This document shows positions 3,001 through 26,023 of a DNA stretch of 37,488 nt, in pieces. The notes under the pieces are model-generated. The model did no database searches. It was not told the DNA's origin and saw only the letters and a list, made by a program, of their open reading frames with translations. Each line of letters starts with the position of its first letter. The first letter of the stretch is position 1. Origin of the DNA: Planctomycetota bacterium. GTDB taxonomy: Bacteria; Planctomycetota; MHYJ01; JACQXL01. The stretch covers positions 1 through 37,488 of the forward strand of contig JAZDFP010000016.1 of NCBI GenBank assembly GCA_043807745.1, written 5' to 3'. A program made the translations under genes and the position numbers.

Positions 3001-3983
3001 AGGTAAGTTCCGTATTTTGTCCATTCCGATGCACCATCAAACTTACCGATTCTTGGCTGGAGAGAATAACCACCGCCTATAATGATTCTGCTTTCGCTTG
3101 GCAAATCCCGAATGGTCCAGACCTCATCAGTTGCGATAAATCCAAGTGTAGTCAAACCTGCCGAGATGTCCGTTAAAGTATCGTATGCATAAGTATATAA
3201 TAAACTATTCTGGCAACCGATGGCAAACTTACCTAATACCGAACTATATCTTACGATTAATATTACATCAGCAGTATAATTAGCCGACACCTCAAAAAAG
3301 CCCGTAGCATGTCTATATAGCACCAAATCACCATCGCTCGTCCCGATTAAGAATATTCCGTTAACCGGGTCAAAATCCAGAGACATTATGTCATTCTGAA
3401 AAGTCAGGGCAGTCATAAAGTCATCCGATAAATTGGTTGATGTCCAGGGGTCTCCCGGGATTACCTTAACCAGTCTTGTCTGATTTGGATCTATATTATT
3501 ACCGCCAATAAGATAATATCCGTTTGTTGCATTATAAGAAATAGTATTAACCGGACTACTTCCCCATGCCAATCCAGCTGGTAAAAGTAATGCTGTTCTA
3601 TTGGTCCAGTTTATACCATCTGTGGTAGACATTAACTTACCATCCGAAGAACCGACGAGGAGGACCCTACCGTTTACGCCCAAGTCAACATATTTCATAG
3701 CGGTAATATATGTTGCGGCGGTAAACCCGGCTAATGCAAAGCAATCGGTGGCATGACCTTTTCGCAGCATACACAGCATATCATTACCGCCATAGAATAC
3801 CGCGTCTATGCTTGCCATGTATTCCACGCACCAAAGGTAAAAGGCAGGGTTTGTGCAGACCAGTTTATTTGTTAGGTTTAAGGACTCCGGGATGACAAAC
3901 TTATTTGCTATGCCTACTCCCGATGGGGTAATAGGGTTAAAACTATTATTTCCCGCAATGTAGCAAATATCTCTGACAGACAT
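1..3983 (-). CDS. Giant tail-tip / receptor-binding protein: propeller-like N-terminus, Tal/baseplate-hub-like region, LamG lectin-like domain and fibre-like C-terminal part. The 3' end runs off the window.
   Basis: I translated the minus strand from the ATG at 3983..3981 (an in-frame TAG lies just upstream at 3995..3993). It reads more than 1327 codons with no stop down to position 1. It is missing from the ORF track because there is no stop in the window. The protein begins MSVRDICYIAGNN. It contains a BNR/Asp-box-like STTDGINWT (~3604-3630). A hub-like stretch WELRYTGYINKISTYLD...DAIKILALLQGNTDWGVDANKKFYFK lies at ~2000-2900. A LamG/concanavalin-like jelly roll ALVLNGSTQYIKCGN..FSWSVWFKT..YQLVVTKD..MKLYLNGVE..LDEAVCW lies at ~860-1395. 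Fibre-type motifs DRIEDGV and TKKYVDD lie at ~1-620. The gene sits directly after Dit, where Tal/RBP genes normally lie. Confidence 0.8.
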   Translation of the reverse strand, partial: MSVRDICYIAGNNSFNPITPSGVGIANKFVIPESLNLTNKLVCTNPAFYLWCVEYMASIDAVFYGGNDMLCMLRKGHATDCFALAGFTAATYITAMKYVDLGVNGRVLLVGSSDGKLMSTTDGINWTNRTALLLPAGLAWGSSPVNTISYNATNGYYLIGGNNIDPNQTRLVKVIPGDPWTSTNLSDDFMTALTFQNDIMSLDFDPVNGIFLIGTSDGDLVLYRHATGFFEVSANYTADVILIVRYSSVLGKFAIGCQNSLLYTYAYDTLTDISAGLTTLGFIATDEVWTIRDLPSESRIIIGGGYSLQPRIGKFDGASEWTKYGTYLRGFDGDHSVVKDIAVKTAAEIEDDPEGALQYRIILLDKTNVRKEIITNKVEKFEWSYDQWGGCGRFECVAKEELDSTSELWNITEGWQVQLWILGYQNTWELRYTGYINKISTYLDESGTGLEFEGDGFSGHLNRIYCNKHFTATTVAVALKYILDTYVLPYSPITYDNNQIQGAATVTDIYFRGTALDAIKILALLQGNTDWGVDANKKFYFKTTSSTVGKVLIQQKDIDILNISQDFEHIYNVVTVLRGFTDSVFNIGAEESSNYSHGGSITSYDRRERVSLFGSLLSATDSLAVATNLTTVAKDIWKTKQLEAKPVEIIDWIEFIQPIGLVRIFSPGMLTAEDEEVESVRYTLKGDAIIMAMQLGKPESEAVGGMSVLESKVNDIFDMLRQIRNSSAFKIQSSLPYLDLVNSSDYGGRVFTDATAIYLCSNCYYDGANWQRKDISKIASLLKLKSDTNELLYYSTSAGANPIASWDLLNGVSVYHAQNTDIGTNQNFNISKTTPTLTKTNAGGYTSEDKYTEGRVETKTVTVYKPGQAGQALVLNGSTQYIKCGNVLNLGYLQKFSWSVWFKTGSNVNSLQCIINKQNSNAPYTGYGPTIYNGKVYWDFVQTVGGAKYLQIISSASLSPNTVYQLVVTKDDTNTQAGMKLYLNGVEGHTNGNNQPLDADPTTTYELCFGCWGTGAGRFAGVTLDEAVCWTNYVLTQTDVDAEYGAGAGKHHVAGTNIAGIWHFNNDVLDSSGNGYNGTAVGNPTYTTGTVPIPGSYEATEFDRIEDGVAGAEQGIRTIGHASGSLKLLTGTKTTPVDADSVYQKDSADSNKTKISTWTQTKAFLKTYFDTVYILLTKIVTSWSSPTLDTNIPSEKLVKDNLGLKANDADVVHDTGNENVDGIKIFSSSPIVPTPTTDYQASTKKYVDDNAPAVVYEELIAVGGTNESFTLSNLYTLGANMLWVIQQGQDITTEITEVDTTHFTIPFTVAGEKIITRIVTVLSHASG

Positions 3984-3999
3984 AGAATATCTCTATAAA

Positions 4000-7831: not shown

Positions 7832-8806
7832 TTACACCGATGTTACGGTGTTAATCAGCGTTAGTTTCACCTCTTTATTGCTATCATCCTGTTTGAATGC
7901 ATTGAAACTGATTTTTTCCAATATCCTGCCCTTTGCCGAGACGGAATTGCTGTATGGATTCAACTTGATTGCCGGGCAGTCTAACTGGAATGTCTGTTTA
8001 AATGCATCTGAGCCGCCGGTTATTACCGCGCCTTCAAACTTCACCCGCAATGCCCTGGATTGCGCGTTAAGAAAATCCGTGCGCCTGCTCACGGTATCAA
8101 ACTCCGCCACGAACGAACCGGATATGATTCTATTGCCTTTCTTTACCGGCTCTTCCATTTCCCTGTCCGGGAACGGAACCCAGTCATCATCCAGGTCGTA
8201 TGCTATTGACATCTCAAAAGAGTTGACCTTAACCCGGGCGTTATTGAAATAAATAAAATTCGCCTCCGCATCCTTATAGGTGATAATCTTGGTCTCGGTG
8301 AATGATTCGCTTGACTTGGAGCTGTAGGTTGCATCAGCACCGATAATCTCAGGGGTTATCACCAGCCCGCCCCTGTTATTAAGGGCAAATCGCATGTTCT
8401 TAATCTTGCAACCGGCTATCAGCAGGCATCCGGTATCACGGTTGATTTCAAAACTCAATCCTATCGGCAGTGCAGTGGCAAGGGTGAATATATGCTGCCA
8501 GACATCCGGGTCGTTGGTGCTATCCGGCTGTGAGCTGGAAACGCTCCCGAAGAGGTGCTTGAATAACAACTCCGCGCCTTCCCATCGGTTAAAGAATTCA
8601 AAAGAACCCTGCGCCATGCGTTTGCCCTGGATGACATCATCCTCATGCCTACTATCCTCATACAGAGAATCCAGAACCACCTGTTCCTCGTTTTCCTCTA
8701 TTGACTCGGAGTTAATCTTGAGGAACTTGCTTCTTGCCACGAGGTCGGCAAAGATAGATTCTTCCCCGAATCCCACATATGCTTCTTGGCCTAATCCTGA
8801 TGCCAT
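7832..8806 (-). CDS. Major tail (tube) protein
   Basis: 324-aa ORF with a strong SD (AAAGGAGAACTATT ATG). It sits after the neck genes and before the chaperones. The pattern MAQGSFEFFNRWEGAELLFKHLFGS resembles phage tail tube families. Confidence 0.65.
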   Translation of the reverse strand: MASGLGQEAYVGFGEESIFADLVARSKFLKINSESIEENEEQVVLDSLYEDSRHEDDVIQGKRMAQGSFEFFNRWEGAELLFKHLFGSVSSSQPDSTNDPDVWQHIFTLATALPIGLSFEINRDTGCLLIAGCKIKNMRFALNNRGGLVITPEIIGADATYSSKSSESFTETKIITYKDAEANFIYFNNARVKVNSFEMSIAYDLDDDWVPFPDREMEEPVKKGNRIISGSFVAEFDTVSRRTDFLNAQSRALRVKFEGAVITGGSDAFKQTFQLDCPAIKLNPYSNSVSAKGRILEKISFNAFKQDDSNKEVKLTLINTVTSV

Positions 8807-8832
8807 AATAGTTCTCCTTTATTTTAAATTAA

Positions 8833-9090
8833 TTATTTCTTTTTTCTGGTCAGCGTTTCTTTCTTATTATCTCTAACATTTATCTTAATCTCTGGGGCAA
8901 GTTTGTATTCCTTATGTTCCCGGAAGTTTCTTGAGTCTATGAACTGTTTGCATACTTCCTTATATCTGTTTTCATTCCCGCCAAAATCAGCCGGGGATAA
9001 TTCCAGTGTATCACCATGCTTTACGGTTATCCCACCTTTGAGTTTGGGGAAATAAACTGGGCTGAGCGTTCCCTGATATACCAGTTTCAT
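8833..9090 (-). CDS. Hypothetical structural-module protein (85 aa)
   Basis: ORF in the operon between the neck and tail tube genes. No recognisable motif. Confidence 0.5.
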   Translation of the reverse strand: MKLVYQGTLSPVYFPKLKGGITVKHGDTLELSPADFGGNENRYKEVCKQFIDSRNFREHKEYKLAPEIKINVRDNKKETLTRKKK

Positions 9091-9106
9091 ATTACTATCT
9101 CCTTAT

Positions 9107-9358
9107 TTAAGAATTAATCATCGGTTTTGATTCACCGGCCCTATCATAATATTGGATATCCGCTCCCCACAAAGAGGTGGGAATCGGTTGGTTGGTATTT
9201 TTATCTTTAAAGAAATACTGGAGTTTTACCTTGCCCGGTGATTTTACGGAGAAGTTGAACCCGACAAATTCCTTTACTTCATCGTTTGTCAGTTGTTTGC
9301 CGTTAATCTCAATTTTGGTATTCTTGGCAAAACCGTCAGTATCAATCAGTATTTTCAT
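9107..9358 (-). CDS. Hypothetical structural-module protein (83 aa)
   Basis: ORF in the operon between the neck and tail tube genes. No recognisable motif. Confidence 0.5.
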   Translation of the reverse strand: MKILIDTDGFAKNTKIEINGKQLTNDEVKEFVGFNFSVKSPGKVKLQYFFKDKNTNQPIPTSLWGADIQYYDRAGESKPMINS

Positions 9359-9368
9359 GTCTTCCTTC

Positions 9369-9863
9369 CTAAGATTCCGTCATTACCGCAACTTCCAGAT
9401 TGATAGCAAAGGCGAATAAGTTTGAATTCGTGGTATAAACGAAATCATCTTCAGGCGGCTCCCATTCTATTCCGGTAACCAGAACCCACTCTATCGTGGC
9501 ATTGGTCAGGACCAATCCGTTCAGGTCGAGCGAGTCCATAAAAAGTTCGGCGAGTATTCTTGCCTTCTGTGTTTTAAGTTCTACCGGATTCTCGCCCTTG
9601 GCGTATTTATTGACATAAACAACCCTGAACTTATAAACCGGCTGGTAGACTTTTCCTATCTGCCTAAAGTTATTAGTTACTTCCCCATAAGGGCGGACAA
9701 AAACGCCGGGCACGAAATTAGCCATGTTTAAAGGCGCTGGCATATAATCTATCTGACCAAACTGGATTTCTTTCAATCCCCAACTTGTTTTTAATGCCGC
9801 GCTGATAATGGAGATAATCTCATCACATATCTCCTCGGCGTGTATCATTTGTTTGATAGTCAT
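9369..9863 (-). CDS. Putative tail terminator / neck protein
   Basis: 164-aa ORF directly after the HK97 gp10-like gene. The assignment rests on position only. Confidence 0.4.
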   Translation of the reverse strand: MTIKQMIHAEEICDEIISIISAALKTSWGLKEIQFGQIDYMPAPLNMANFVPGVFVRPYGEVTNNFRQIGKVYQPVYKFRVVYVNKYAKGENPVELKTQKARILAELFMDSLDLNGLVLTNATIEWVLVTGIEWEPPEDDFVYTTNSNLFAFAINLEVAVMTES

Positions 9864-9866
9864 TCT

Positions 9867-10262
9867 TTATCCTTCAGGATGTAAATATCCCTCTTCGTTT
9901 CCTACGGGTCTTAATTTCTGTAACAATGATATCAGTTTTTCCGAACCAGCCTTAAATCCACCTTTCAAGAATAACCTATGTCCTACCTTATGTCTGCCAT
10001 ATCCATACTCCACATATGGAGCATAAAATACCGCCGAACCTATTTTAGACGTATAGCGATTACCCTCTACTCCCGTGAAGTAATTAATTGATGCCCTTAA
10101 CAATCCGGTATCCACTGGCGTGCCTCTTTTGGATTCGGCGATATTCTTCAATGATGCTGTCCGTAATATATTGAGTAATTTTTCTGGTAAATTCCTTATA
10201 GCCTGATTAGTGGTAAAAATAACATTCTCAATACCGTTAATTGTTACAGCCATTTTGAACAT
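9867..10262 (-). CDS. HK97 gp10-family head-tail joining protein
   Basis: The motif GTPVDTGLLRASINY matches the gp10-family signature (vDTG.LR.Si). The size (131 aa) and position also fit. Confidence 0.7.
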   Translation of the reverse strand: MFKMAVTINGIENVIFTTNQAIRNLPEKLLNILRTASLKNIAESKRGTPVDTGLLRASINYFTGVEGNRYTSKIGSAVFYAPYVEYGYGRHKVGHRLFLKGGFKAGSEKLISLLQKLRPVGNEEGYLHPEG

Positions 10263-10583
10263 CTATATTTCCTTCTGTTCTAAAATCACTTCCTTATGAT
10301 GACTGAAATACTTAGCGACATAATTAACCTCGTATGTTATACTATTGGCATCTAATACCTGGTATCCGGCATCAATATCTACTCCAACTTCACAAAACAT
10401 CTTGTGGGTCGCGGACGGAAACTTTCCCAGAACGGTCCGGTCCCGTCCGCCAGTTAATGGTTCTATCCTGGCTTTCACTCCGGTTACACTCGTCTCCGAT
10501 TCAACTATCTGGTTGTTAACATCTACCGAATGTGTCGGTTTCTTAACCGTTACCGTATCCGTAAGCCAGGAACTAAAAGACAT
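10263..10583 (-). CDS. Head closure / head-tail adaptor protein (SPP1 gp16-like)
   Basis: 106 aa. The pattern is typical: VTVKKPT...VKARIEPLTGGRD...YEV. It lies between the connector and gp10-like genes. Confidence 0.55.
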   Translation of the reverse strand: MSFSSWLTDTVTVKKPTHSVDVNNQIVESETSVTGVKARIEPLTGGRDRTVLGKFPSATHKMFCEVGVDIDAGYQVLDANSITYEVNYVAKYFSHHKEVILEQKEI

Positions 10584-10593
10584 ATGTTTTGCA

Positions 10594-11193
10594 TCACACT
10601 TTCATATTGACGTATCCGTCGAGCATCATCTTTATCTCTGTCGGAACGTCTTTGCTTTCGGTATAGGTTATTGAATATTGCCCGATTGATTCCGACTTGA
10701 CGCCTTCCTTCTCCCTCTGCCTGAACAACTTTATGACAAGTTTCCTGCAGGCGAGATTGACCGCTTTCGGAATAGTCTCATATCCGGCAACATAAACTAC
10801 CTTAACATTGGCGACTCCGACCTGGAATATGCCCCGGGTGAAGAATTGTTTTGTCTCTCCGAACAGCCTAACATACCCCTCGTTCTCATAAGGATAGTAT
10901 TCACTGCTGTTTATCAGGGTATTAGAATCAAAGACGCGGTCGACGTCATCATGGATTGTCGTCACCGCAGTCACCGGCCGGTGCTTCAGGTATATGGTAT
11001 CGTTGCCCTTGCCGTCGATATATTCGGTATACGGCCTCGACAAAAACTGCCTCTTGCAGTAACTATTTTCTATCCAGTTGCTTACGGCATCAATCAACGC
11101 CTCAAGGATGTCGTCATAAGTAGTTGCCGTTGTCAGTTCAAGGTCTGTTTTGACCTCGTCGAGCGTAGTCAGGTCATAATTAGGGTCAGGCAT
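10594..11193 (-). CDS. gp6-like head-tail connector protein
   Basis: The N-terminus DLTTLDEVKTDLELTTATTYDDILEALIDAVSNWIENSYCKRQF matches the gp6-like connector pattern (l.evK..L.i....D..i..li.aA...ie.y..r). An SD (GAAGGAATAATTT ATG) precedes it. Confidence 0.7.
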   Translation of the reverse strand: MPDPNYDLTTLDEVKTDLELTTATTYDDILEALIDAVSNWIENSYCKRQFLSRPYTEYIDGKGNDTIYLKHRPVTAVTTIHDDVDRVFDSNTLINSSEYYPYENEGYVRLFGETKQFFTRGIFQVGVANVKVVYVAGYETIPKAVNLACRKLVIKLFRQREKEGVKSESIGQYSITYTESKDVPTEIKMMLDGYVNMKV

Positions 11194-11220
11194 AAATTAT
11201 TCCTTCACAATCATTAGGTT

Positions 11221-11703
11221 TCACTTCTGTTTTTTTCTCGTTACCTTCTTACCATCCATGCTTAGTTTCGGGGCCGGCGGCAGGGGTTTCTTGGGCGCAG
11301 GCACTGACGCGGGCTTGGGCGTTGCCGCTATCGGCGCGGGTTTGGGCGGTTCAATAACCGGTTTTGGTGCTACAACCGCTTCTTTTTTCATCTCCGGCTT
11401 GACCTCAATCTTCTTTACCGGAGGCTGGAACGAATTAGCTTTCGTCATTGCGGGGGCCACAGGTTTTATCGGTTCGATAATTTTCTTAACCTTGTTGTCC
11501 GGCGCCGGTGCTTCAGTCGCCTTCTTGACTATCCTCCACTCACCGGGGAACGAACTGACGAGTTTCTTTGCACTGCTTTCCGGGATATCGAATGACTGTC
11601 CCTTTCTCGCCCTCTTTATTTCCCTGCCTGAATAAGCCTCGCCCAGGAATTCCACTTTTACCATCGGTTCCGATGTTTTTGTTTCCGTCTTAACTTCTGT
11701 CAT
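11221..11703 (-). CDS. Pro/Ala/Lys/Val-rich low-complexity protein with a small globular N-terminal domain
   Basis: 160 aa. Residues ~65-150 are almost entirely P/A/K/V/E repeats (APAPDNKVKKIIEPIKPVAPA...KPVIEPPKPAPIAATPKPASVPAPKKPLPPAPK). Its start overlaps the stop of the upstream GT-A gene by 14 nt. Confidence 0.6.
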   Translation of the reverse strand: MTEVKTETKTSEPMVKVEFLGEAYSGREIKRARKGQSFDIPESSAKKLVSSFPGEWRIVKKATEAPAPDNKVKKIIEPIKPVAPAMTKANSFQPPVKKIEVKPEMKKEAVVAPKPVIEPPKPAPIAATPKPASVPAPKKPLPPAPKLSMDGKKVTRKKQK

Positions 11704-12502
11704 CTTTCCTCGCTTTCTTCCCGGAAAATAATTCCGGGTAATATGTTTTATAAAATATCTCAGGATAAATCCCTGAGTAATCTAATATCCTGCATTGCGG
11801 TGGCAACTGGTCCGTCAGGAACGATTCACGGCAGGTAATGTAAAGCGGACGGGTCACCTTTTCTCCGCGTTCAATATATAGATTCAAATTTACCTTATAC
11901 CGCTCTGTATCTTTCCTTGCGAATCCCATGTGGTAACATGCTATATCATTCGTATATAACGACCTGTCGTTCTTGATTCCGTATAGACTCCCATCTTTAT
12001 ACGACAGCCGGACGTGGTCGATTTCAAACTTACTTCCGTTGTAATACTTAAATGCATGGCACTGTTTTATACTGAAATATCCGCCCTCTATTATCCTGGT
12101 TATACCTTTCCAGAAGTTGATGATTGGATACATTACCGCATCGTATTGGATGAGCAATGCCTTCAACCTTTCCATGTCGTCAAAGGTATAAAACTGGTCG
12201 ACATCAAGTCTGATAAACGAATCGTTGTCCTTCAGGAGCGTTACATAAAAACGGGCTTTTTCCTCTTTGATTGCAAAAGGCATTTCATGCCATTCAATTT
12301 TACTGCCATATTCCCTGATTAGTTTCTTGACCACGTTTTTAGTCCCATCATTAGATAATCCATTTTTGGAGATGATATCCTTGTTGTTCCTCTTGTCGGC
12401 GCCGTCTATGATGATAACCCTGTCGAAACAATTAACATGCTGGCGGATATTCATTTCTATAAACTCTACCTCGTTGTATACAATCATCATTCCGACAAAC
12501 AT
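11690..12502 (-). CDS. GT-A fold (GT2-like) glycosyltransferase, paralogue of 14082..14675
   Basis: The N-terminus MMIVYNEVEFIEMNIRQHVNCFDRVIIIDGAD fits the GT2 pattern. A later acidic motif, RLDVDQF, is DxD-like. It shares the motifs VYNE, DRVI.(V/I)DGA and DGT with 14082..14675. Confidence 0.6.
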   Translation of the reverse strand: MFVGMMIVYNEVEFIEMNIRQHVNCFDRVIIIDGADKRNNKDIISKNGLSNDGTKNVVKKLIREYGSKIEWHEMPFAIKEEKARFYVTLLKDNDSFIRLDVDQFYTFDDMERLKALLIQYDAVMYPIINFWKGITRIIEGGYFSIKQCHAFKYYNGSKFEIDHVRLSYKDGSLYGIKNDRSLYTNDIACYHMGFARKDTERYKVNLNLYIERGEKVTRPLYITCRESFLTDQLPPQCRILDYSGIYPEIFYKTYYPELFSGKKARKDDRS

Positions 12503-12505
12503 TAT

Positions 12506-13144
12506 TTATTTCCTTTCAAATAAGGCTACCAAGTCATGTTCTTTAGTCTGCTCTTCAAACAGTATCTCGTGATAGATAAGATTGCATTTATCAAGCGCCT
12601 TTATATAATCCGGCAAGCCGAATCCATTCATATGCAGGGACGGTTTATAATTCATGGTAAAGGCGCTTATGTCCTCGTGCAGCAGATAGTATCCGCCCGG
12701 TTTGAGTATTTCCTGTATCGAATTCACCGATTCCGCCCAGGTGATATGGTCGTTGATATGTTGCACGACCGTGAAGGTAAAAGCGATTTCAAATGATGCC
12801 GTGTATTTGTTTTTAAGATTTTTAATCTCCTCTACGACATACTGGTTCTTGAGCGGAAGTTCATTAAAGCACTGCATCGCTTTCTCTGATATATCTGTGC
12901 AAAGGAGTTCCCTGATGAATGAATTATAAAAAGGAGTCAGCCTACCCGAGCCGGCGCCTATTTCTATCCCATTGTTAAAAGTCATTTTCCCAGCTCTTGA
13001 TAATGCCCTACCCATCCTCTCGGTGTCTCTCTTGTATCTCTCTTCCTGGTGGTCATAAATCTGTCTGGATATGCAGGCATTGGCGCCTTCTCTTGCGTAT
13101 CTATCATTCCAGTATTTCTTGATATCAAATTTCTCTATGCTCAT
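12506..13144 (-). CDS. Class I SAM-dependent methyltransferase
   Basis: Motif I is GIEIGAGSGRLTPFY. The later LKPGGYYLLHE is typical of Rossmann methyltransferases. An ATGA overlap couples it to the upstream gene. Confidence 0.75.
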   Translation of the reverse strand: MSIEKFDIKKYWNDRYAREGANACISRQIYDHQEERYKRDTERMGRALSRAGKMTFNNGIEIGAGSGRLTPFYNSFIRELLCTDISEKAMQCFNELPLKNQYVVEEIKNLKNKYTASFEIAFTFTVVQHINDHITWAESVNSIQEILKPGGYYLLHEDISAFTMNYKPSLHMNGFGLPDYIKALDKCNLIYHEILFEEQTKEHDLVALFERK

Positions 13145-14085
13145 TTCAGCATCTCCCTTGCGGTTTCAAATACATATCCGGGGCTCAACATTTTCATGCA
13201 GATATTATCCCGGCAGGTTATGAACATATTCGTCCGATTGGCTTTGTCGCTGATATAGCATCTCTGGCAATTAATTTCTTTTCTCAATATTATTGCCCTG
13301 TTATCCTGCACGTGCGGCTTGTTCTTTATTTCCGATGTCGGACCGAACATGGCTATCTGTTTTATTCCGGTGGTCGTGCCCAGGTGCATTATTCCCGAAT
13401 CTATCGATATCAGAAGACTTGAAGCCATCATCAAGGCAGCAACCTTATCAAGCGTATCCTTAAATACAGGCACATCTGATTCATTCGCCATTTGGTTTGT
13501 CTGTTCTTTCTCATGCTCTCCGCAGAGTAGGCATAATTTATATTCCGACATCTCTTTTTTAAAATATGATATCAGGTCTAACCAGTAGTTATCCGGCCAT
13601 TTCTTTTTCTCCCAGTGCTTGTTGCTGTGGCAGCCGACATGCATCAGTATCATTTTCTGTTTCTCGTAGATATCCGGGACGGGGAATAATGTCGGGTAAA
13701 ACTTTTGGTTGATTGACTTGATAAGTTTCTCGCTCATCAGCGTTTGTAGATTAATTTCTATTTCTGAAGTAAATAAGAATTTACGTTGCTGTTCTGGCTC
13801 GTATAGTAGTTTATCACTTACTCTTTTTAATGGCTCGTCAAACCTTGCCGTCCTGAAGCATGAATTTAAACTGTAATTATAGTGATCGGTTATCTGTTCT
13901 GTTTCCCTGTATATTCTATTAATACGGGGATGTTTTGCCATGACGTCGTAGGCTCGGTCGGACGATAAGACGTCTATCTGCATACCGGGGTTATCATCGG
14001 CGAGTTGTGAGATAACAGGGGTAAATAATACCCCATTCCCGAGGCCTTCGCTTACCCCTAAAAGAACCTTTAGTTCACCGCTCAT
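13141..14085 (-). CDS. GT9-family (heptosyltransferase-like) glycosyltransferase
   Basis: The N-terminus KVLLGVSEGLGNGVLFTPVISQLADDNPGMQIDVL matches the GT9 pattern (lGD.v..tP....lk...P...i..l). The C-terminus VAALMMASSLLISIDSGIMHLGTTTGIKQIAMFGPTS matches the motif DSG.mHlA...g.p.v.lfGpt. A Cys-rich tail, CQRC...CRDNICM, follows. Confidence 0.75.
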   Translation of the reverse strand: MSGELKVLLGVSEGLGNGVLFTPVISQLADDNPGMQIDVLSSDRAYDVMAKHPRINRIYRETEQITDHYNYSLNSCFRTARFDEPLKRVSDKLLYEPEQQRKFLFTSEIEINLQTLMSEKLIKSINQKFYPTLFPVPDIYEKQKMILMHVGCHSNKHWEKKKWPDNYWLDLISYFKKEMSEYKLCLLCGEHEKEQTNQMANESDVPVFKDTLDKVAALMMASSLLISIDSGIMHLGTTTGIKQIAMFGPTSEIKNKPHVQDNRAIILRKEINCQRCYISDKANRTNMFITCRDNICMKMLSPGYVFETAREMLK

Positions 14086-14675
14086 ATTTTATTTATCTGT
14101 CTGAATTCCTTTTCCTCGGTTCTCGACCGGTAATATTGACCCTTTGCCATTACACGTTCCTGTTTCCGCTCTGCATTAAAGTGAATGATATTACAGTTCA
14201 TTATCGTTTCCATCTTGCGTTTATTCAAAATCTCATCGCCTATCATCAGGCAGTGATGAGTCCCAAAATATCTTATCCCCCTTCTATGCCTGAATAATCT
14301 ATATACCGGATAAGCGGATATTCCGTCTGTCCGGTATAGAGATATATTCCAGTCATCCTGTTCCTCATAGCCCTTCGGGATTCCCGCGAGTTCCTCATCC
14401 CCGTCTATCATCAGATACCAGTCGCCCTCTTTGCCCAGCAGGTATCGGTTCCTTTTAACTATCTGGCTTTCCCATGCATTTTCGGTCGTGATTATCTTAT
14501 CCGCATATTTCCTTGCCAACTCTATCGTCCCGTCGGTCGACCAGGGTTTGTCGTAGGGGAAAGAAACATAGGCTCCATCCACTACGATTACCCTGTCCAC
14601 TTTTTCCCTGATTGACCTGATACACCGCCCGAAAAACTGGGCTTCGTTATAAACGGACAGGACACCGATTAACAT
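14082..14675 (-). CDS. GT-A fold (GT2-like) glycosyltransferase
   Basis: Motifs LIGVLSVYNEAQFFGRCIRSIREKVDRVIVVDGAY and the DxD-type LMIDGDEE. An SD (AGAAAGGGAAA ATG) precedes it. It is the first gene after the major capsid gene. Confidence 0.65.
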   Translation of the reverse strand: MLIGVLSVYNEAQFFGRCIRSIREKVDRVIVVDGAYVSFPYDKPWSTDGTIELARKYADKIITTENAWESQIVKRNRYLLGKEGDWYLMIDGDEELAGIPKGYEEQDDWNISLYRTDGISAYPVYRLFRHRRGIRYFGTHHCLMIGDEILNKRKMETIMNCNIIHFNAERKQERVMAKGQYYRSRTEEKEFRQINKI

Positions 14676-14708
14676 TTTCCCTTTCTTTTTATCCGCCTTC
14701 GCAGAAGA

Positions 14709-14774
14709 CCACGGGTTTACGCCCGTGGAACTTCATTAACTAAGCCCAGCACCCATCCCCTGGATAGGTGCTGG
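14709..14774 (-). other. Two GC-rich stem-loops in the intergenic region after the major capsid gene (attenuator or RNA-stability elements)
   Basis: The first is CCAGCACC..ATCC/GGAT..GGTGCTGG (14746..14774). The second is CCACGGG/CCCGTGG (14709..14728). Neither has a clear U-tract on the minus strand. Confidence 0.35.
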
Positions 14775-14813
14775 ACTATATCTGTTATACTAAGACCTTT
14801 CAGTCAAGTCTGT

Positions 14814-16127
14814 TTACGCTAAAATATTTCTGGCTATTGCCACGATTTTCTCTGTAGTCTCGTCATATCTCGGGGTGAACGCCTTCCTGGTTGTCGCCAC
14901 GAGAATATTCTTCTGATATGACGGCCTGTTTTCCAGTTCCAGTTTGATTGCCCTGCGAGTTCCATGCAGGAATCCCGGACGGAACACAAGGATGGCTTCC
15001 GTCAAGGCATTGCCGGTTCCGTCATAAACAGCGCTTGCGCTCAGGTCTTCCCTGATATACTCGGAGCAGATAACCGGGATGTTATCAAACTTGCCGAGTT
15101 CGCCCTGGAGAACCGTTGCCATCGGGCCGTATTTATCCACAGTCCTGAAGCTGGCGAAGTTGGTCTTGTTAAGCATCGCGTTAAACGTGGAAATACCAAC
15201 TACCCATATCAGGTTGTTCGGATTCACTCCGTATTTTCCCATCAGGATTCTTACCGCCTGCAAGTCGCCTTCGACAACCGCATCCCCGCCCACGTTATAC
15301 TTAGCGGCTTCAAGACAGTGCTTGCGGTATCCCTTCCAGCATTTACGGGCATCATCCGCATCGGTGACATCGCTATCCTGATGCGCTGTCGTGGTATCAC
15401 CGTTGATATCGCAGTTTTCCACGCCATGCCCGAGCGCCTGGGCGATATCTTCCTTAATGGTCGGCAACATGGGTATGATTGAGTCTTCCTCAAGTTCATA
15501 ACTGATGTCAACCCTGGATATCAGTGTCTCTGCCGTGAGGGTTAATGCACCGGTTCCGGGTGTCGTTGCCGTGGCTTCGCTTGCCTCGGTCGATTTCTTG
15601 GCGGTTGACCTTGAGGTCTTGCGCCCGAATTTAAACGGATCGCTCGGCATCGGAACATCCCTGTGGGATGCAGCCACCTTCAATTCCAGGTTAAATAGGT
15701 CGACCAGTTCGGAACTGAAATCGGTCGGAATCCATTCTGCGCCCGTTCCTGTCCCGCCGGTCGTCATCGCCTTGGCGAGTTCGGATTCGTTGATTAACGG
15801 CTTCAAACTCTTAAAGAGATTGAAATTCTGCATCGGCTTCTGGCACAGCACAGACATGATCAGCAGGTCATCATTAATCTGCTGGATTTTCTTAACCGTC
15901 TCATCTTTCGTCCTCTTCCTAATGAGAACGTTCATATTGGTTATCCTGGGGTCAGCCTCATCCACGTTGAACTCACCTTTGCGCACTGCTTCGGCGAATT
16001 CATCACGCTGCAACTTCAGCACTTCCTCTATTTCTTCCTTTACTTTCGCTGGGTCAGCCGATTTGGCGATATCGGAAAGTTCTTTCACCTTCCTTCCGAG
16101 CGTATCGCTTATTTTATAGTCTACCAT
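14814..16127 (-). CDS. Major capsid protein (HK97 fold)
   Basis: 437 aa, placed after the protease and scaffold genes. The N-terminal delta-like helical region is followed by GGTGTGAEWIPTDFSSELVDLFNLELKVAS...VPMPSDPFKF, which is typical of Phage_capsid family proteins. Confidence 0.85.
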   Translation of the reverse strand: MVDYKISDTLGRKVKELSDIAKSADPAKVKEEIEEVLKLQRDEFAEAVRKGEFNVDEADPRITNMNVLIRKRTKDETVKKIQQINDDLLIMSVLCQKPMQNFNLFKSLKPLINESELAKAMTTGGTGTGAEWIPTDFSSELVDLFNLELKVAASHRDVPMPSDPFKFGRKTSRSTAKKSTEASEATATTPGTGALTLTAETLISRVDISYELEEDSIIPMLPTIKEDIAQALGHGVENCDINGDTTTAHQDSDVTDADDARKCWKGYRKHCLEAAKYNVGGDAVVEGDLQAVRILMGKYGVNPNNLIWVVGISTFNAMLNKTNFASFRTVDKYGPMATVLQGELGKFDNIPVICSEYIREDLSASAVYDGTGNALTEAILVFRPGFLHGTRRAIKLELENRPSYQKNILVATTRKAFTPRYDETTEKIVAIARNILA

Positions 16128-16197: not shown

Positions 16198-16581
16198 TCA
16201 CTTCTTATGAAGTGCATCTTTTACCATCTTTCCTATCTGGTCTTTGGTAAGGATTTTTTCCTTAATAGACTCAATCAGGGTGACTGCGTCTTCACAGTCT
16301 TTGCATACTTTTTCAAGGTCTGCCTTCACGGTGGCGTTCTCCGCCGTCAGTGTTGCATTAGCAGCCTTCAAAGTAGTAATCTCTCCGTCTTTCTTCGTGA
16401 TATCCACATTCTTCTTTATCATTTCATCGTTAAGTGACGCTATCTGCCCTTCGAGTTTTGCCTTCTCGGCACCTGCGGCATCATCTCTTTTAAACAAGAA
16501 GAATGGCGACTTATTTGCCGGCGAGTCCACCAGCGCCACAACGTCAATTTTCAGGTTTTTCAGTTTCCTGGGTTCCGTCAT
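16198..16581 (-). CDS. Scaffolding protein (coiled-coil)
   Basis: 127-aa helical, charged ORF (EKAKLEGQIASLNDEMIKKNVD...TLKAANATLTAENATVKADLEK) between the protease and capsid genes. Confidence 0.6.
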   Translation of the reverse strand: MTEPRKLKNLKIDVVALVDSPANKSPFFLFKRDDAAGAEKAKLEGQIASLNDEMIKKNVDITKKDGEITTLKAANATLTAENATVKADLEKVCKDCEDAVTLIESIKEKILTKDQIGKMVKDALHKK

Positions 16582-16615: not shown

Positions 16616-17371
16616 TTATCTGGAAGCGGTTCCTTCCATCGAGTATCCGGTTATCTTGCCTTCCTTGACGAGTCCCCATAGTTGGCTGTTCAGTATGTGC
16701 GTTGCCATTACCCAAGAGCCTTTCTTGACCTGCCTCTGCCCCATCGGGAAATCAACCGGGGCGATATAGCACTCGGCGATGCGCACATCTTTGTTAATTA
16801 GTTCCTGATGCATGAATGATATGTTTTGGTATTCCTCCAGGAAGTCGTGACATACCCTTTCAATTTCCTCGGCGTCGGTATAATCACCGTGAGCATCCAC
16901 GGTATCCGGTTCGTAAACGATGCCGTAGACTATCTGCTTTTCGTCGTCCCTTTTTAATATTGCTATCTCCCTTTTCATGACCAGGAAGTCATCCGGGAAT
17001 AGTGTTGCCAGTTCCTCTGATTTGTATGCTTTCATGGCTGGAGCATCTTTCGAAAACTGTTTGTAGTGTGATGCCAGGTGGTCGTAAACACCCTGTTTAT
17101 CATCTGCTGGGATATCAACTCCGCCTCTCGCGCCTAACAATGCAGCCATGGCTGTAACCACACCCTTCCACACGGCTTTCTTGTCACCTGCAGTGTGGTG
17201 AGGCATTTTATAGGATGATTTAACATCCGGGTTTTCCTCATCCATCCAAGCGCAGATTTGTTTCAGCACGGTTACATCAGCGGCCGCTATTTCTTTCGGG
17301 CCATCCCATGCCATGCCGATATCGTGCATCCCCAAATCCTTGAACGGAATCGCTTTTTTGTTTATCTCCAT
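16616..17371 (-). CDS. XkdF-like (Peptidase_S78_2-type) putative prohead protease
   Basis: The C-terminal half QIVYGIVYEPDTVDAHGDYTDAEEIERVCHDFLEEYQNISFMHQ...IAECYIAP...GYSMEG fits the XkdF domain pattern. An SD (AAAAGGAGTTGAAAA ATG) precedes it. Confidence 0.75.
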   Translation of the reverse strand: MEINKKAIPFKDLGMHDIGMAWDGPKEIAAADVTVLKQICAWMDEENPDVKSSYKMPHHTAGDKKAVWKGVVTAMAALLGARGGVDIPADDKQGVYDHLASHYKQFSKDAPAMKAYKSEELATLFPDDFLVMKREIAILKRDDEKQIVYGIVYEPDTVDAHGDYTDAEEIERVCHDFLEEYQNISFMHQELINKDVRIAECYIAPVDFPMGQRQVKKGSWVMATHILNSQLWGLVKEGKITGYSMEGTASR

Positions 17372-17391: not shown

Positions 17392-17430
17392 AAATAAAAA
17401 AGCCGTTCAAACGTTATGTCTGAACGGCTT
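17392..17430 (-). terminator. Rho-independent terminator (repeat copy A) after the portal gene
   Basis: Minus strand: AAGCCGTTCA-gacataacgtt-TGAACGGCTT, followed by TTTTTTATTT. The stem is 10 bp and perfect. Confidence 0.7.
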
Positions 17431-17477: not shown

Positions 17478-19547
17478 TTATTCTACTACTGGAATTAACG
17501 TGCAACGACAGTTGCACAAATTTTTCGCTGAACCTTTCGGGTCACCGGGATATGCCATTATTTCCCCGCCCACGGAGAAGTCATCTTCAATATTTACCAC
17601 CTGCCCGTTTACTGCGGCGTGTTCCGGCCTGGTCCGCTCATCAATCGCGGTTAACCATTCCTTTTTCTCAGCCCCCATGGTCTTATATCCTATCAGACTT
17701 GCGTTATTGGATGCAGATATTACTTCCGTCCTGGCAATCGTCCGCGCCCGGTAAGGTTCGGCTCTGGTCATTCCGTCAAATACATCCTGCACCCTTGCCT
17801 TCATTTCCTCGATACTCTCGCCGTCATTGTATCCCTCGCCGAGTGTATCCCCGAGTTCCCTTAGCGTAGTCTTATTTATCTCATCTGCGAATTTGAATAT
17901 CTTGGTATTAAGATAATCGACTACTCTTGGGTCGGAAATGTCAAAATCAATAGACCCACCCAGCCTCTTGATTGCGACATTGCCGAACTCCTTCATGGTT
18001 TCACTCAATACTCCGGACATCTGTCTCTGTAATTCCTTATTGGCAAGTGTAATATTAAACATCAGGTTATCTACCTTGGCGTCTTTTCTAATCTTGTCCT
18101 TACCGACCCTTGTTGGTCTGTAATTCTTATCAATCGCATCCATTACCTCAGCCATCTGTTTCTTGGCAAATTTTCTTACGACTACTATCATCTCGTCCTC
18201 ATATGGTTTAGTCCGGTCTACGTAGTCGCGCCATATCCGCTCTTTCTTCTCTTTCTTGGTCAACCTTGACTTGGTGACGGCCGGTTCAGGCTTAACTTCG
18301 TCTGCCGGGTAAAGATTAAAAGGACGATTCCATGTATATCCCCACGGGACCGCCGGCAATCCCCGGCGCGCCCTGACCTCGTTTATCGTTTCTATGCCGT
18401 TGGTCACAAGGGCAACGTCCATCGTCGTTCTCTTTTCCTCATTCTCCGCCATCGCTTTGATGAATTTATAATCAGGTTCAAAATAAAGATTTTCATCTAT
18501 CGGATAGCATAATTGAACCGTCAAGGTTGCCGCCATCTTTTCGGAAAGCGCCATTATAAGTTCATTGACGAATGTCTTTTTCTGTTCCTCCATATTGGAG
18601 TAATTGGTATATTCCAATATTCCTAAAATTCCCGGGGGGGTGCCAATTACTCCGAGTATTTCACTGCATCCCTGCTTCCTGCCCTCAATGAATTCGCTGT
18701 CTTTTTGGCTCTGTGTCGTCGGGGTATATTCTAATCCGTTATCCAAAAATAATTGCTTATGGAAATTGTCGGGTCCGGAATATTCAGTCTCTATCTGCCG
18801 TTTTATCCTTTCGAATGAATCGTCACTCAAGGATTTTTCGGTTGTGAATACTCCCGATACCTTCCCGCCTTTTTTGAAGAAGTTCTTGTTATATGCGATT
18901 GCGTAGTAATCCGTTATCAGGGTATTAACTAAAGGCGATAATGGAGATAACCCTTCGGAATCGGATAATGGATTCCAGAACTTGAAGTGTATCATTTCGA
19001 ACGGCTGGTATTCTATCGGCTTCTTCCCGTATTCGTATCTGATTACAGGCGTCGTTTTTCCAGGCACTACTACCGTCTTTCCAGATTGCAAAATAAATAA
19101 TTCTTTTGGTATATCAGAAGGTGCGGGTTTCCTTTTGTTGTATTCTTTTGCCGTGAAACAGTTGCCGGCGAGTGATAAATTTATTGAGATTCCTTCTTTC
19201 AAATCATAACCAGAATAAAACGGATTCGGTTTTTCAAGTAAATTAATAAGCAGATGGTCTTTTACCTCAATTCCCTTATCGCCCTTCCACTGCATGAGTT
19301 TAAAAGGGCACTTGGCGATGTTCCTGGCGATTGCCGCTATTGATGAATGAACCCATGGATGCAGGGAATAATTCTCCAAGTATTTCTGCCAGATTGAATT
19401 TGATTGTGATTTGCCGAATTGTTTGTTGTCATAATCATTTTCCAGAGCCCGGTTCTCTTTTGATATGGTTATGTCCCCGCCGGCACTGATAGATCTGAAC
19501 CGAGGATTATCTGGGATGGATTCAGATTTTGATATTTTCCTCTTCAT
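17478..19547 (-). CDS. Portal protein fused to a Mu F / SPP1 gp7-like minor head protein domain
   Basis: ~689 aa. The N-terminal two thirds are portal-like (position and size). The C-terminus RTIARTEVISASNNASLIGYK...WLTAIDERTRPEHAAVNGQVV...YPGDPKGSAKNLCNCRCTLIPV is a clear Phage_Mu_F motif. The ORF-track start at 19559 is a TTG. I prefer the first ATG at 19547 (MKRKISKSE). Confidence 0.85.
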   Translation of the reverse strand: MKRKISKSESIPDNPRFRSISAGGDITISKENRALENDYDNKQFGKSQSNSIWQKYLENYSLHPWVHSSIAAIARNIAKCPFKLMQWKGDKGIEVKDHLLINLLEKPNPFYSGYDLKEGISINLSLAGNCFTAKEYNKRKPAPSDIPKELFILQSGKTVVVPGKTTPVIRYEYGKKPIEYQPFEMIHFKFWNPLSDSEGLSPLSPLVNTLITDYYAIAYNKNFFKKGGKVSGVFTTEKSLSDDSFERIKRQIETEYSGPDNFHKQLFLDNGLEYTPTTQSQKDSEFIEGRKQGCSEILGVIGTPPGILGILEYTNYSNMEEQKKTFVNELIMALSEKMAATLTVQLCYPIDENLYFEPDYKFIKAMAENEEKRTTMDVALVTNGIETINEVRARRGLPAVPWGYTWNRPFNLYPADEVKPEPAVTKSRLTKKEKKERIWRDYVDRTKPYEDEMIVVVRKFAKKQMAEVMDAIDKNYRPTRVGKDKIRKDAKVDNLMFNITLANKELQRQMSGVLSETMKEFGNVAIKRLGGSIDFDISDPRVVDYLNTKIFKFADEINKTTLRELGDTLGEGYNDGESIEEMKARVQDVFDGMTRAEPYRARTIARTEVISASNNASLIGYKTMGAEKKEWLTAIDERTRPEHAAVNGQVVNIEDDFSVGGEIMAYPGDPKGSAKNLCNCRCTLIPVVE

Positions 19548-19560
19548 AGCATAAAGCAAA

Positions 19561-19670: not shown

Positions 19671-19709
19671 AAATAAAAAAGCCGTTCAAACGTTATGTCT
19701 GAACGGCTT
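19671..19709 (-). terminator. Rho-independent terminator (repeat copy B) at the end of the accessory island
   Basis: Same 10-bp stem and TTTTTTATTT tail as copy A. Confidence 0.7.
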
Positions 19710-21178: not shown

Positions 21179-22300
21179 TTATTTATTAATTAAAGAATCA
21201 AATAATCTTATATGTTCCTTTACCATCCGCTCCTGAGAAAACAATATCTTTCCTGAGTTGGCGATTTTCCTATTATCCAGAATATTCACTTCTTTTAATA
21301 ATGCGATTATGGTCCCGGCAAGAACCTCGGCATTGCCTCTTGGGAATCCATAAATGGCAGCCTCATTAATTATCTCTTCCATGTTCTCGCCCTCACTCAC
21401 GATACACGGCAGTCCGCAGCAGGTCGCCTCCATTATCGTCGTATCCATTCCTGTATAATATAGTGTCGGATTGACGAATATCTTAGCCTGATTGTAAACG
21501 CCTGGCATTTCATCATTCGGCAATGCGCCTTTGTATTCTATGTTAATAAAATCATGCTTTTCGGTATTGCTTCCAAATGCGACGCATCTGATATTCCTAT
21601 TCCATTCTTTTACCATTCCCATTGCATGGTTAAGCACTCCGATTCCTTTTAACTTGGTAAGGTTGCCGGTAAAAAGAACATCATATATCTTTTCCTGTTC
21701 AGGCATGTAGTCAAACCTGTCAATATCGATTCCATTCCTTATCATCTCCACCCTCTTCGACTGTAACACATATTTAATATTCCTTACATTCACTTCGGTT
21801 AATCCGATGAGGCAGTCGTATTTCTGCGCATTCATCCTGTCTTCCCGCGCTTGCATTATGCGCCCGTGCACCCATATTGCAAACTTGTTGACATCAAAAC
21901 GGACATCATCCGGATTCGTTATCGCCGGTATAAGCGACGTGAATATTTCCTCATAAGAGAAGCCGTGCAGTCTCTGGATTGACGGTATTGCCGGATAACT
22001 ATCTACTACATAACTTCCGGCTCCTGATTCTGAATAAATCAAATCCTGTTTTAACTCCCCCACTCTTTTGGTCGCCAACTTAAACCATTCCGGCGTATAC
22101 CGCAATGTCGGACAGGGTAGGTATTCTATCCTAACATTATTAACCACCTCTTCCTTGATTGACTTGTTAGGATTGCTCATGGTCAGCACGGTTATCTCAT
22201 GCCCTGCCTTGGCAAGCCCTTCGCATAGGCTACCGCATACATTGGGCATCCCTCCTGGGCTGGTCGTCGGATATCCGCGTGTTAAGACTGTGATTTTCAT
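21179..22300 (-). CDS. GT-B fold glycosyltransferase, GT4 family (Glycos_transf_1)
   Basis: The N-terminus is MKITVLTRGYPTTSPGGMPNVCGSLCEGLAKAGHEITVLT. The C-terminus is FVNPTLYYTGMDTTIMEATCCGLPCIVSEGENMEEII, which fits the E..g....EA...G.P.i.s motif. Confidence 0.8.
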   Translation of the reverse strand: MKITVLTRGYPTTSPGGMPNVCGSLCEGLAKAGHEITVLTMSNPNKSIKEEVVNNVRIEYLPCPTLRYTPEWFKLATKRVGELKQDLIYSESGAGSYVVDSYPAIPSIQRLHGFSYEEIFTSLIPAITNPDDVRFDVNKFAIWVHGRIMQAREDRMNAQKYDCLIGLTEVNVRNIKYVLQSKRVEMIRNGIDIDRFDYMPEQEKIYDVLFTGNLTKLKGIGVLNHAMGMVKEWNRNIRCVAFGSNTEKHDFINIEYKGALPNDEMPGVYNQAKIFVNPTLYYTGMDTTIMEATCCGLPCIVSEGENMEEIINEAAIYGFPRGNAEVLAGTIIALLKEVNILDNRKIANSGKILFSQERMVKEHIRLFDSLINK

Positions 22301-22301
22301 A

Positions 22302-23128: not shown

Positions 23129-23132
23129 ACTA

Positions 23133-25179: not shown

Positions 25180-25187
25180 ATCGCTCC

Positions 25188-25289
25188 TTAATATGGATAA
25201 TGTCCGTTTGTAAAATATGGCTCATTATTTTTGGTTTTCACTGGCTTCTTGGTGCCCTTACCTTTTTTTGACTTCTTGTTCTTTTTCAC
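25188..25289 (-). CDS. Possible Lys-rich mini-protein (33 aa, GTG start)
   Basis: I translated VKKNKKSKKGKGTKKPVKTKNNEPYFTNGHYPY. GGAGG lies 9 nt upstream of the GTG, and the ORF fills an otherwise empty 109-bp gap. This call is very tentative. Confidence 0.2.
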   Translation of the reverse strand: MKKNKKSKKGKGTKKPVKTKNNEPYFTNGHYPY

Positions 25290-26014: not shown

Positions 26015-26023
26015 TATGAAAAC

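Follow-up and report, generated by a model that had tools for sequence, protein, structure and literature searches.

Among tailed phages, glycosylation of the virion has so far been demonstrated only in mycobacteriophages, as far as the literature found goes. Enzymes of the mycobacteriophages Corndog (gp35-38), Che8 (gp110 among them), and Myrna are reported to modify capsid and tail tube proteins (Freeman et al. 2023, Cell Host Microbe 31:1216, cited via PMC11600133, PMC12363180, PMC12619734), and mycobacteriophage virion glycosylation is reported to lower antibody binding and neutralization. In cluster F1 phages such as Maravista, a relative of Che8, the glycosyltransferase (GT) genes are found at the end of the genome (PMC11256854). 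The locus described here is a four-gene cassette of three GTs and a methyltransferase on contig JAZDFP010000016.1. The window, meaning the whole stretch of DNA that was analyzed, is this entire 37,488-bp contig, which was deposited with a Planctomycetota metagenome-assembled genome (MAG). It is a siphovirus-type phage fragment, incomplete at both ends, with all of its genes on the minus strand. Between the major capsid gene and a gp6-like adaptor gene lie, also on the minus strand, the genes for a GT-A enzyme (GTA1), a GT9-type enzyme, a class I S-adenosylmethionine (SAM)-dependent methyltransferase, and a second GT-A enzyme (GTA2). The best reading of the cassette, to which we assign a probability of roughly 60%, is that it forms the transferase half of a phage system which acts in the cytoplasm of the host, late in infection, to glycosylate proteins of the virion.

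In Corndog, the gene order is portal, TylF-type methyltransferase, gp36, GT2-like enzyme, GT25-like enzyme, protease, and capsid. Corndog gp35-38 and the cassette are alike in consisting of one methyltransferase and three GTs, all soluble and all encoded within the head-morphogenesis operon. They differ in the slot that is occupied, which lies between portal and protease in Corndog and between capsid and adaptor in this phage. The enzymes themselves are not Corndog homologues, save for a weak match of the GT9 enzyme to gp36 (E 5.6e-5), and the Methyltransf_24 protein found elsewhere in the window matches Corndog gp35 with an E value of only 0.013. Mycobacteriophages infect Actinobacteria, whereas the contig was binned with a Planctomycetota MAG, and unlike Corndog, Che8, and Myrna, this phage carries an extra GT9 enzyme and a module for tailoring nucleotide sugars. 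Glycosylation is reported as proven for the three mycobacteriophages; for this phage, it is deduced from the genes. Of the two features that define systems of the Corndog, Che8, and Myrna type, one is glycans bound covalently to capsid or tail tube subunits through the phage GTs; the other, soluble phage GTs with or without a methyltransferase that are co-expressed with structural genes, is present here as well, judging by gene content and order.

A second parallel comes from the Cluster J mycobacteriophages. A preliminary description of this DNA had stated that the slot between capsid and connector usually holds nothing or a decoration protein. This needs an exception, and the slot is not new, because an insertion of 8-10 genes, a GT and methyltransferase block, sits between the capsid and connector genes of Cluster J phages (Pope et al. 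2013, PMC3706429). In the Cluster J phage Thibault, the capsid gene is followed by gp11-gp19 (with four annotated GTs, a methyltransferase, and a kinase), then by the small gp20 and the adaptor. Cluster J phages (Thibault, Omega) and the window phage thus share the same slot with several GTs and a SAM methyltransferase, and Thibault gp19 belongs to the GTA1 family over its full length (hidden Markov model [HMM] E 1.6e-30). As in the window, the block leads, in Thibault after gp19, into a small basic-tailed protein (gp20, rich in Pro, Ala, Lys, and Glu) and the adaptor; the tail of gp20 is similar to that of the small protein in the window, although no homology between the two is detectable. 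The Cluster J block is larger, also contains a Ser/Thr kinase and a metallopeptidase-like protein, and lacks a GT9 enzyme, and its capsid is not detectably related to the window capsid.

Viruses of eukaryotes offer a more distant comparison. In the chlorovirus PBCV-1, whose A064R protein is an example, and in the capsid or fibril glycosylation of giant viruses, the major capsid protein receives a methylated glycan from virus-encoded cytoplasmic GT and methyltransferase domains, and mimiviruses encode aminosugar pathways (viosamine, bacillosamine). These viruses have eukaryotic hosts, and their capsids are unrelated to that of the window phage.

The four cassette genes are co-oriented, translationally coupled, and embedded in the head operon. 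Starting from the capsid side, the successive junctions are a 4-nt overlap, a second 4-nt overlap, a 3-nt spacer, a 14-nt overlap between GTA2 and a small Pro/Ala/Lys-rich protein, and a 27-nt spacer between this small protein and the adaptor. The four open reading frames (ORFs) and the fold or family given to each in the preliminary description (GT-A, GT9, SAM methyltransferase, and GT-A) are all correct, three of them by Pfam and GTA2 by AlphaFold and Foldseek. All 16 proteins of the cassette and of a second sugar cluster upstream have a maximum 19-residue hydropathy below 1.75, which makes them soluble proteins without a transmembrane segment. A Pfam scan together with the hydropathy profiles found no flippase, polymerase, or Gtr-type partner in either cluster; in particular, both clusters lack the parts needed for Gtr-type or O-antigen seroconversion (the GtrA flippase, the GtrB bactoprenol GT, and a membrane GtrC or Wzy).

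GTA1 is the conserved core of the cassette. It scores 28.1 bits against Pfam Glycos_transf_2 (PF00535; cut-off 23.3) over residues 6-97. Among 30 family members, D33, S46-T-D48-G-T50, and E94 are invariant, and the two aspartates of the D91-x-D93 motif show at least 90% conservation. With this profile match, a nucleotide-binding Asp, and a DxD metal-binding motif, GTA1 is assigned to the GT-A fold. Its top sequence match in the Protein Data Bank (PDB) is the GT domain of GmaR (E 5.4e-7), followed by a weaker match to SunS. GmaR of Listeria transfers N-acetylglucosamine (GlcNAc) onto flagellin and exemplifies the cytoplasmic glycosylation of folded proteins and peptides (PMC9638930). The phage enzymes resemble GmaR, SunS, and ThuS in their GT2-type GT-A domains and common N-terminal motifs, and differ from them in having no tetratricopeptide repeats (TPRs) or substrate-binding extensions. 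They are not members of the SunS family, as the SunS NCBIfam model gives 18 bits, for a cut-off of 350.

The cellular relatives of GTA1 are of a similar kind. A search of 185,579 representative cellular genomes places GTA1-like domains solely inside large multidomain proteins, and no stand-alone GTA1 adjoining a capsid gene, as a prophage copy would, was found in them. Seven of the best ten cellular relatives are fused to TPRs, and the top two are additionally fused to GT41, the O-GlcNAc-transferase family. Among solved structures and cellular proteins, those nearest to GTA1 are protein or peptide GTs. Among cultured phages, the matches to GTA1 amount to 36 records, from mycobacteriophages only; those inspected (Thibault, Optimus) belong to Cluster J.

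The position of GTA1 relative to capsid genes is equally consistent. In each of the 10 metagenomic contexts inspected, the capsid gene is followed by a GTA1 homologue at a distance of 0-4 genes; GTA1 is the sole GT in three of these, and in one the portal is of the SPP1 type and the capsid is a different one, of 300 aa. When IMG/VR was scanned with a GTA1 profile, 67 loci were returned, of which 47 are strong. Where an IMG/VR locus has a capsid of the window type (17 loci), the capsid gene ends between -88 and +208 nt from GTA1 in 14. In 29 further loci, the region upstream of GTA1 contains 68 ORFs, and 22 of these have matches in other capsid families (Mu gpT 9, Phage_capsid_4 6, Phage_capsid 4, and Phage_capsid_3 3), a count that is an upper bound since one protein may match two related models. 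The GTA1 family therefore accompanies capsids of at least four Pfam families in IMG/VR. This capsid linkage of the wider family is a new observation and the part of this work most worth following up.

Other sugar genes are found near the capsid genes to which GTA1 is linked. Extra GTs occur upstream in GTA1-linked IMG/VR loci. Genes for UDP-glucose/GDP-mannose dehydrogenases are present near GTA1-linked capsid genes in four IMG/VR loci and FkbM methyltransferases recur beside them in five, both within the set L014-L061. Another gene for a UDP-glucose/GDP-mannose dehydrogenase lies between portal and protease in the related contig L006 (6184-6948). The recurrence of dehydrogenases and FkbM methyltransferases suggests that the virion glycans are chemically diverse.

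GTA2 is more divergent, and the protein itself has no sequence match in Pfam, PHROGs, NCBIfam, or the PDB. Several lines of evidence nevertheless identify it as a GT-A enzyme. GTA2 and GTA1 are paralogues, which align by BLASTP with 33% identity over 103 aa (E 3e-8). An exhaustive profile search yields 559 relatives, and in fused or multidomain homologues the matching region is scored as Pfam GT2 (PF00535). An AlphaFold model made from 62 sequences has a predicted local distance difference test (pLDDT) score of 94.6; it supersedes an earlier four-sequence model that was unusable (pLDDT 48.7). Foldseek returns 199 PDB matches for this model at E <= 0.001, nearly all of them GT-A-fold GTs, with ThuS and SunS at the top (E 5e-10 to 9e-9), though identity in the structural matches is low (about 15%, with a template modeling [TM] score of about 0.52). 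Across the 62 sequences, N10, S50, D52, D100-x-D102, and H191 are invariant. A Foldseek comparison with giant-virus GTs shows only a generic GT-A resemblance.

The 314-aa enzyme between them matches Glyco_transf_9 (PF01075) with 63.2 bits (cut-off 22) over residues 104-277, and its PDB matches are 3tov, WaaC, and WaaF. It shares with WaaC and WaaF the C-terminal nucleotide-sugar-binding domain of the GT9 family, and this donor-binding domain is conserved; it differs from them in a short, divergent N-terminal acceptor domain and in an additional four-Cys motif. It is probably not a heptosyltransferase I, II, or III (WaaC, WaaF, WaaQ), as judged by the equivalog models, against which it scores 55.0 (TIGR02193, cut-off 185.3), 54.7 (TIGR02195, cut-off 134.6), and 44 bits (TIGR02201, cut-off 170). 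The C-terminal CxxC...C...C motif (C273, C276, C291, and C296) is invariant in four orthologues. So is N17, which belongs to a G-L-G-N17 motif where 3tov and WaaC have G-D, in an N-terminal alignment that is weak (2 bits). In WaaC, the catalytic base is Asp13, and Asn17 of the GT9 enzyme appears at that position, subject to the same weak alignment. The enzyme may bind metal and be mechanistically atypical. A role as a protein heptosyltransferase of the TibC type (TibC/Aah, BAHT) was considered and has no support from sequence, as a profile of the four orthologues gave no match to TibC in the PDB at E <= 10.

The 212-aa protein that follows the GT9 enzyme matches Methyltransf_11 with 37.3 bits (cut-off 21.2) and also exceeds the cut-offs of Methyltransf_12, _25, and _23, so these profiles identify it as a class I SAM-dependent methyltransferase. 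Its orthologues occupy the equivalent position in three related contigs (L001, L002, and L008).

No relative of the window was found at the DNA level (blastn against 50,697 phage records), and neither the capsid nor the GT9 enzyme, each scanned as a single protein against IMG/VR, gave a match; the related contigs came from protein and profile searches only. The cassette is present in L003, L001, and L002, where capsid identity to the window is 90%, 60%, and 52%, respectively, and in L008, which was found through its GTA1 (61% identical). In L001, L002, and L008, the order is GTA1, GT9, methyltransferase, GTA2, small protein, and adaptor, with single extra ORFs in some. L003 is short and ends in the gene after GT9, leaving only the first two cassette genes visible. 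A check for the cassette as a unit in related phages, which the preliminary description had proposed, thus finds it conserved in L001, L002, and L008, and in L003 as far as the contig reaches.

More distant relatives depart from this pattern. L006 has a GTA1 orthologue (38% identity) followed by a GT2, a small methyltransferase-like protein, and another GT2, as would be expected if a fixed initiating enzyme is combined with variable extension. L004, with a capsid 48% identical to that of the window, has no cassette; a 104-aa ORF comes after its capsid gene, then the small protein and the adaptor. Of the 69 IMG/VR loci that have a window-type capsid, a GTA1-family gene lies downstream in 10 and a GT9 gene in none; the cassette is therefore best regarded as an accessory module in which the first enzyme is conserved and the later ones vary. 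In L011, which also has GTA1 after the capsid gene, a second and larger glyco block lies among the head-tail genes (8613-14054), where the gp10-like gene is followed by a 722-aa GT9-GT2 fusion, three SAM methyltransferases, a GT4, and a Cpn10 gene.

The capsid gene (PF05065) is separated from GTA1 by a structured 138-nt spacer, as the preliminary description had noted in reporting stem-loops after the capsid gene. The spacer has a minimum free energy of -54.6 kcal/mol (z = -5.7) and forms hairpins of 16 bp and 7 bp without a U-tract. A GC-rich hairpin follows the capsid gene in eight relatives, that is, in every relative, cassette-less L004 included. The spacer hairpins are probably an mRNA 3' stabilizer or an attenuator that keeps the expression of the enzymes below that of the capsid. 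The preliminary description also had the enzymes expressed at the stoichiometry and timing of capsid assembly. Late timing is plausible, but equal expression is not, because a strong hairpin follows the capsid stop codon.

The small Pro/Ala/Lys-rich protein after GTA2 consists of a conserved N-terminal domain of about 60 aa and a basic tail of about 100 aa rich in Pro, Ala, and Lys, and it has no Pfam or PHROG match. The preliminary description placed it next to the transferases, but its N-terminal domain is conserved in L001, L002, L006, and also L004, which has no GT; the protein thus belongs to the head module and not to the cassette. It is always the downstream neighbor of the cassette and may still be a partner or an acceptor. 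In another contig, L009, the GTA1 homologue P0287 carries the small-protein domain as a C-terminal fusion (8001-8777; HMM E 8.7e-6), which hints at a functional link between GTA1 and the small protein, as docking partner or acceptor. C-terminal extensions of GTA1 homologues of the P0298 type look similar to the domain by eye and have no HMM support, so that only the P0287 fusion is significant. The tail of the small protein is variable but always ends in basic residues (TRKKQK, TRKRSR, and similar), with L081 (9723-9980) as another example, and the roughly 100-aa Pro/Ala/Lys tail in the window resembles histone H1.

A second sugar module lies between the large terminase and portal genes. Its aminotransferase scores 559.9 bits against NF008687 (dTDP-4-amino-4,6-dideoxygalactose transaminase; cut-off 375) and is, on this score, assigned as a WecE equivalog; its WecD-like GNAT protein reaches 64 bits against the WecD model, under the cut-off. 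L001 and L008 carry an equivalent module with the same set of genes. The module implies that the phage makes a 4-acylamido-4,6-dideoxyhexose. Compared with the lipopolysaccharide (LPS) heptosyltransferases and with enterobacterial common antigen synthesis, to which WecE and WecD belong, the window clusters have no lipid-carrier or export genes. An HslV/Ntn-hydrolase-like protein is associated with glyco genes in two phages: the window phage, where it is part of this module, and L006, where an ORF similar by eye (9350-10054) lies directly between the capsid gene and GTA1.

These parts can be arranged into a pathway. The terminase-portal module would convert dTDP-4-keto-6-deoxyglucose of the host into a 4-acylamido-4,6-dideoxyhexose by means of the WecE equivalog, the WecD-like N-acyltransferase, the FabG-like reductase, and the TylF-type methyltransferase, and the GT4 enzyme would transfer this sugar. 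GTA1 would attach the first sugar directly to Ser or Thr (or Cys) of a structural protein; it is proposed for this step on account of its place as the capsid-linked core and its resemblance to GmaR, SunS, and ThuS. The acceptor would likely be the major capsid protein, with the tail tube or the neighboring small basic-tailed protein as possible further acceptors. Extension of the glycan could then fall to the GT9 enzyme and GTA2, and the methyltransferase could cap or decorate a sugar. The hairpin after the capsid gene would keep the enzymes at catalytic and not stoichiometric levels. The resulting glycan coat might shield or stabilize the particle or alter its adhesion.

The preliminary description had concluded that the substrate is a virion component, and this is borne out in part: the capsid linkage of GTA1, its protein and peptide GT relatives, and the solubility of the enzymes are in its favor; the virion acceptor itself is a prediction. 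Several points weigh against glycosylation of the virion. The GT9 enzymes characterized so far have LPS cores as their substrates. Of the 69 phages that have this type of capsid, only 10 carry GTA1. When 14 GTA1-linked capsids are compared with 32 unlinked ones, they do not differ in length, Ser/Thr content, or insertions, which leaves surface residues as possible acceptor sites. A Ser/Thr-rich stretch in the N-arm of the capsid was considered as an acceptor segment and is not supported, as it is found in cassette-less relatives as well. Late-expressed accessory genes may simply be tolerated at the position that follows the capsid hairpin, and, since the contig is incomplete, DNA-modification genes are possible elsewhere in the genome. 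For the Cluster J block, Pope et al. (2013, PMC3706429) left open whether the targets are viral or host molecules.

The target might instead be a protein that is not exposed or not part of the virion, such as the small Pro/Ala/Lys-rich protein in the role of an internal or assembly factor, a scaffold, a chaperone, or a host protein; the capsid linkage would in that case reflect only a site, after the terminator-like hairpin of the capsid gene, that is permissive for insertion. Some of the observations fit such a target: the hairpin after the capsid gene is present with or without the cassette and marks a natural joint of the operon, the kinase and peptidase of the Cluster J block share the slot with the GTs, the small protein occurs as a fusion with one GTA1 homologue, and the capsids show no feature that follows the presence of GTA1. 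We nevertheless consider it unlikely, since one GT family is found at the same place beside at least four unrelated capsid families, which the permissiveness of a site alone hardly explains, and since the phage GT and methyltransferase cassettes that have been studied are reported to modify capsid and tail tube proteins (PMC11600133, PMC12363180).

The enzymes could also remodel an envelope glycan of the host (LPS core, O-antigen, capsule, or S-layer), either to mask a receptor and thereby keep progeny phage from being trapped on debris, or to convert the serotype of a lysogen. The characterized members of the GT9 family are LPS heptosyltransferases, WecE/WecD-type genes make a sugar of cell-surface polymers, and PHROGs places the GTA1-like family in the category "moron, auxiliary metabolic gene and host takeover." Even so, a role in the envelope seems improbable. 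Neither cluster encodes a membrane protein, flippase, polymerase, or bactoprenol-linked GT, and the GT9 enzyme lies far under the heptosyltransferase cut-offs and has a divergent acceptor domain. The genes belong to the late head operon, with overlapping stops and starts, and do not have the form of a moron with its own promoter; neither an integrase nor a repressor was found in the 37 kb. Stand-alone GTA1, moreover, is hardly found in the cellular genomes and is common beside capsid genes in viral contigs.

To our knowledge, there is no DNA-modification precedent for a cassette of several GTs with a methyltransferase and an aminosugar pathway beside a capsid gene. Hypermodification of the phage DNA, in which hydroxymethylated bases are glycosylated as a protection against restriction, is very improbable even though phage GTs are classically DNA-modifying and a diversity of viral GTs act in this way (Pyle 2024, via PMC12619734), the genome is incomplete, and the window has PAPS-reductase-like and radical-SAM/DUF5131 genes, since no hydroxymethylase or thymidylate-synthase-like gene was found in the 37.5-kb contig, the modification would be needed during replication and not from the head operon, and the closest relatives of both GT-A enzymes are protein and peptide GTs.

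Glycosylation of virion proteins by the cassette thus remains the preferred reading. A broader proposal, which we hold only tentatively and at rather less than even odds, is that GTA1 represents a widespread, phage-specific family of stand-alone, capsid-dedicated protein GTs of about 200 aa that have been recruited beside at least four unrelated capsid families in phages of hosts ranging from Actinobacteria to the Planctomycetota type. If this were true, glycan-coated virions would be common in environmental phages and not a curiosity of mycobacteriophages, their glycans would include methylated and 4-acylamido-6-deoxy sugars, and the small basic-tailed protein that is always found after GTA1 would be its docking partner or acceptor.

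The locus and its relatives suggest that unrelated, uncultured phages follow the same strategy as the mycobacteriophages with different enzymes and an in-house supply of aminosugar. The position of GTA1 beside a capsid gene could serve as a genomic marker for predicting glycosylated virions in metagenomes, and gp19 of the Cluster J phages offers a cultured test case. The cassette could also provide a compact set of enzymes for engineering glycan coats on phage particles.

The features of the head region and of the second sugar module are listed in Table 1. Downstream of the adaptor gene follow genes for a head-completion protein, a gp10-like protein, the tail tube (7832-8806), the tape measure, and Dit.

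Table 1. Features of the structural region and of both sugar clusters in the window, in gene order on the minus strand (from high to low coordinates)
Feature	Coordinates	Strand	Support or remark
Large terminase	29539-31095	-	phrog_2
Sugar-nucleotide module	21179-26764	-	between large terminase and portal
WecD-like GNAT acyltransferase	26024-26764	-	WecD model, below cut-off
FabG-like SDR	25289-26014	-	Pfam
TylF/Methyltransf_24 methyltransferase	24613-25179	-	Pfam
WecE-type aminotransferase	23133-24269	-	NF008687
HslV-like Ntn hydrolase	22568-23149	-	phrog_1040
GT4	21179-22300	-	Pfam
Portal fused to Mu F domain	17478-19559	-	
XkdF-type protease	16616-17371	-	
Coiled-coil scaffold-like protein	16198-16581	-	
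Major capsid protein, HK97 fold	14814-16127	-	PF05065, phrog_10; 414 homologues
Capsid-to-GTA1 spacer, two hairpins	14676-14813	-	
GTA1, 197 aa, GT-A (GT2-like)	14082-14675	-	Pfam Glycos_transf_2
GT9-type GT-B, 314 aa	13141-14085	-	Glyco_transf_9 (PF01075)
Class I SAM-dependent methyltransferase, 212 aa	12506-13144	-	Methyltransf_11, _12, _25, _23
GTA2, 270 aa, divergent GT-A	11690-12502	-	AlphaFold/Foldseek
Small Pro/Ala/Lys-rich head-module protein, 160 aa	11221-11703	-	
gp6-like head-tail adaptor, lower border of the slot	10594-11193	-	PF05135 E 5e-11; phrog_442 E 1e-28

Some other features of the window are of note. Downstream of the Dit-like gene, a stop-free frame of 1330 codons (3-3992, minus strand) exits the end of the contig and presumably encodes a tail fiber or host-recognition protein. 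Two minus-strand genes near the early end, one for a DUF5131/radical-SAM protein (35329-36066) and one for a PAPS-reductase-like protein (36841-37422; phrog_424), may serve in nucleic-acid modification. The portal gene is bracketed by two identical 31-nt hairpins on the minus strand (17400-17430 and 19679-19709), each with a T-run after it (AAGCCGTTCAGACATAACGTTTGAACGGCTT); by chance, not one pair of this kind would be expected.

The structural operons of the relatives contain mobile insertions (L001 5366-6484 and 11423-12124, L002 16100-16693, and L008 15557-16102). Among them are a TnpB/OrfB_IS605 gene upstream of the portal, genes for NUMOD3/DUF559 and HNH endonucleases, and, located between capsid and GTA1, a Cys-rich ORF of 233 aa. 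A homologue of the capsid protein is found in an unexpected setting in L005 (7837-9357; GCA_037444445.1, JBBIMK010000017.1), where a 506-aa protein with 44% identity is encoded among housekeeping genes (IleRS, FTCD, QRPTase, GH116, and folate) and phage genes are otherwise absent within 17 kb; this may be a relic of a capsid gene or a domesticated one.

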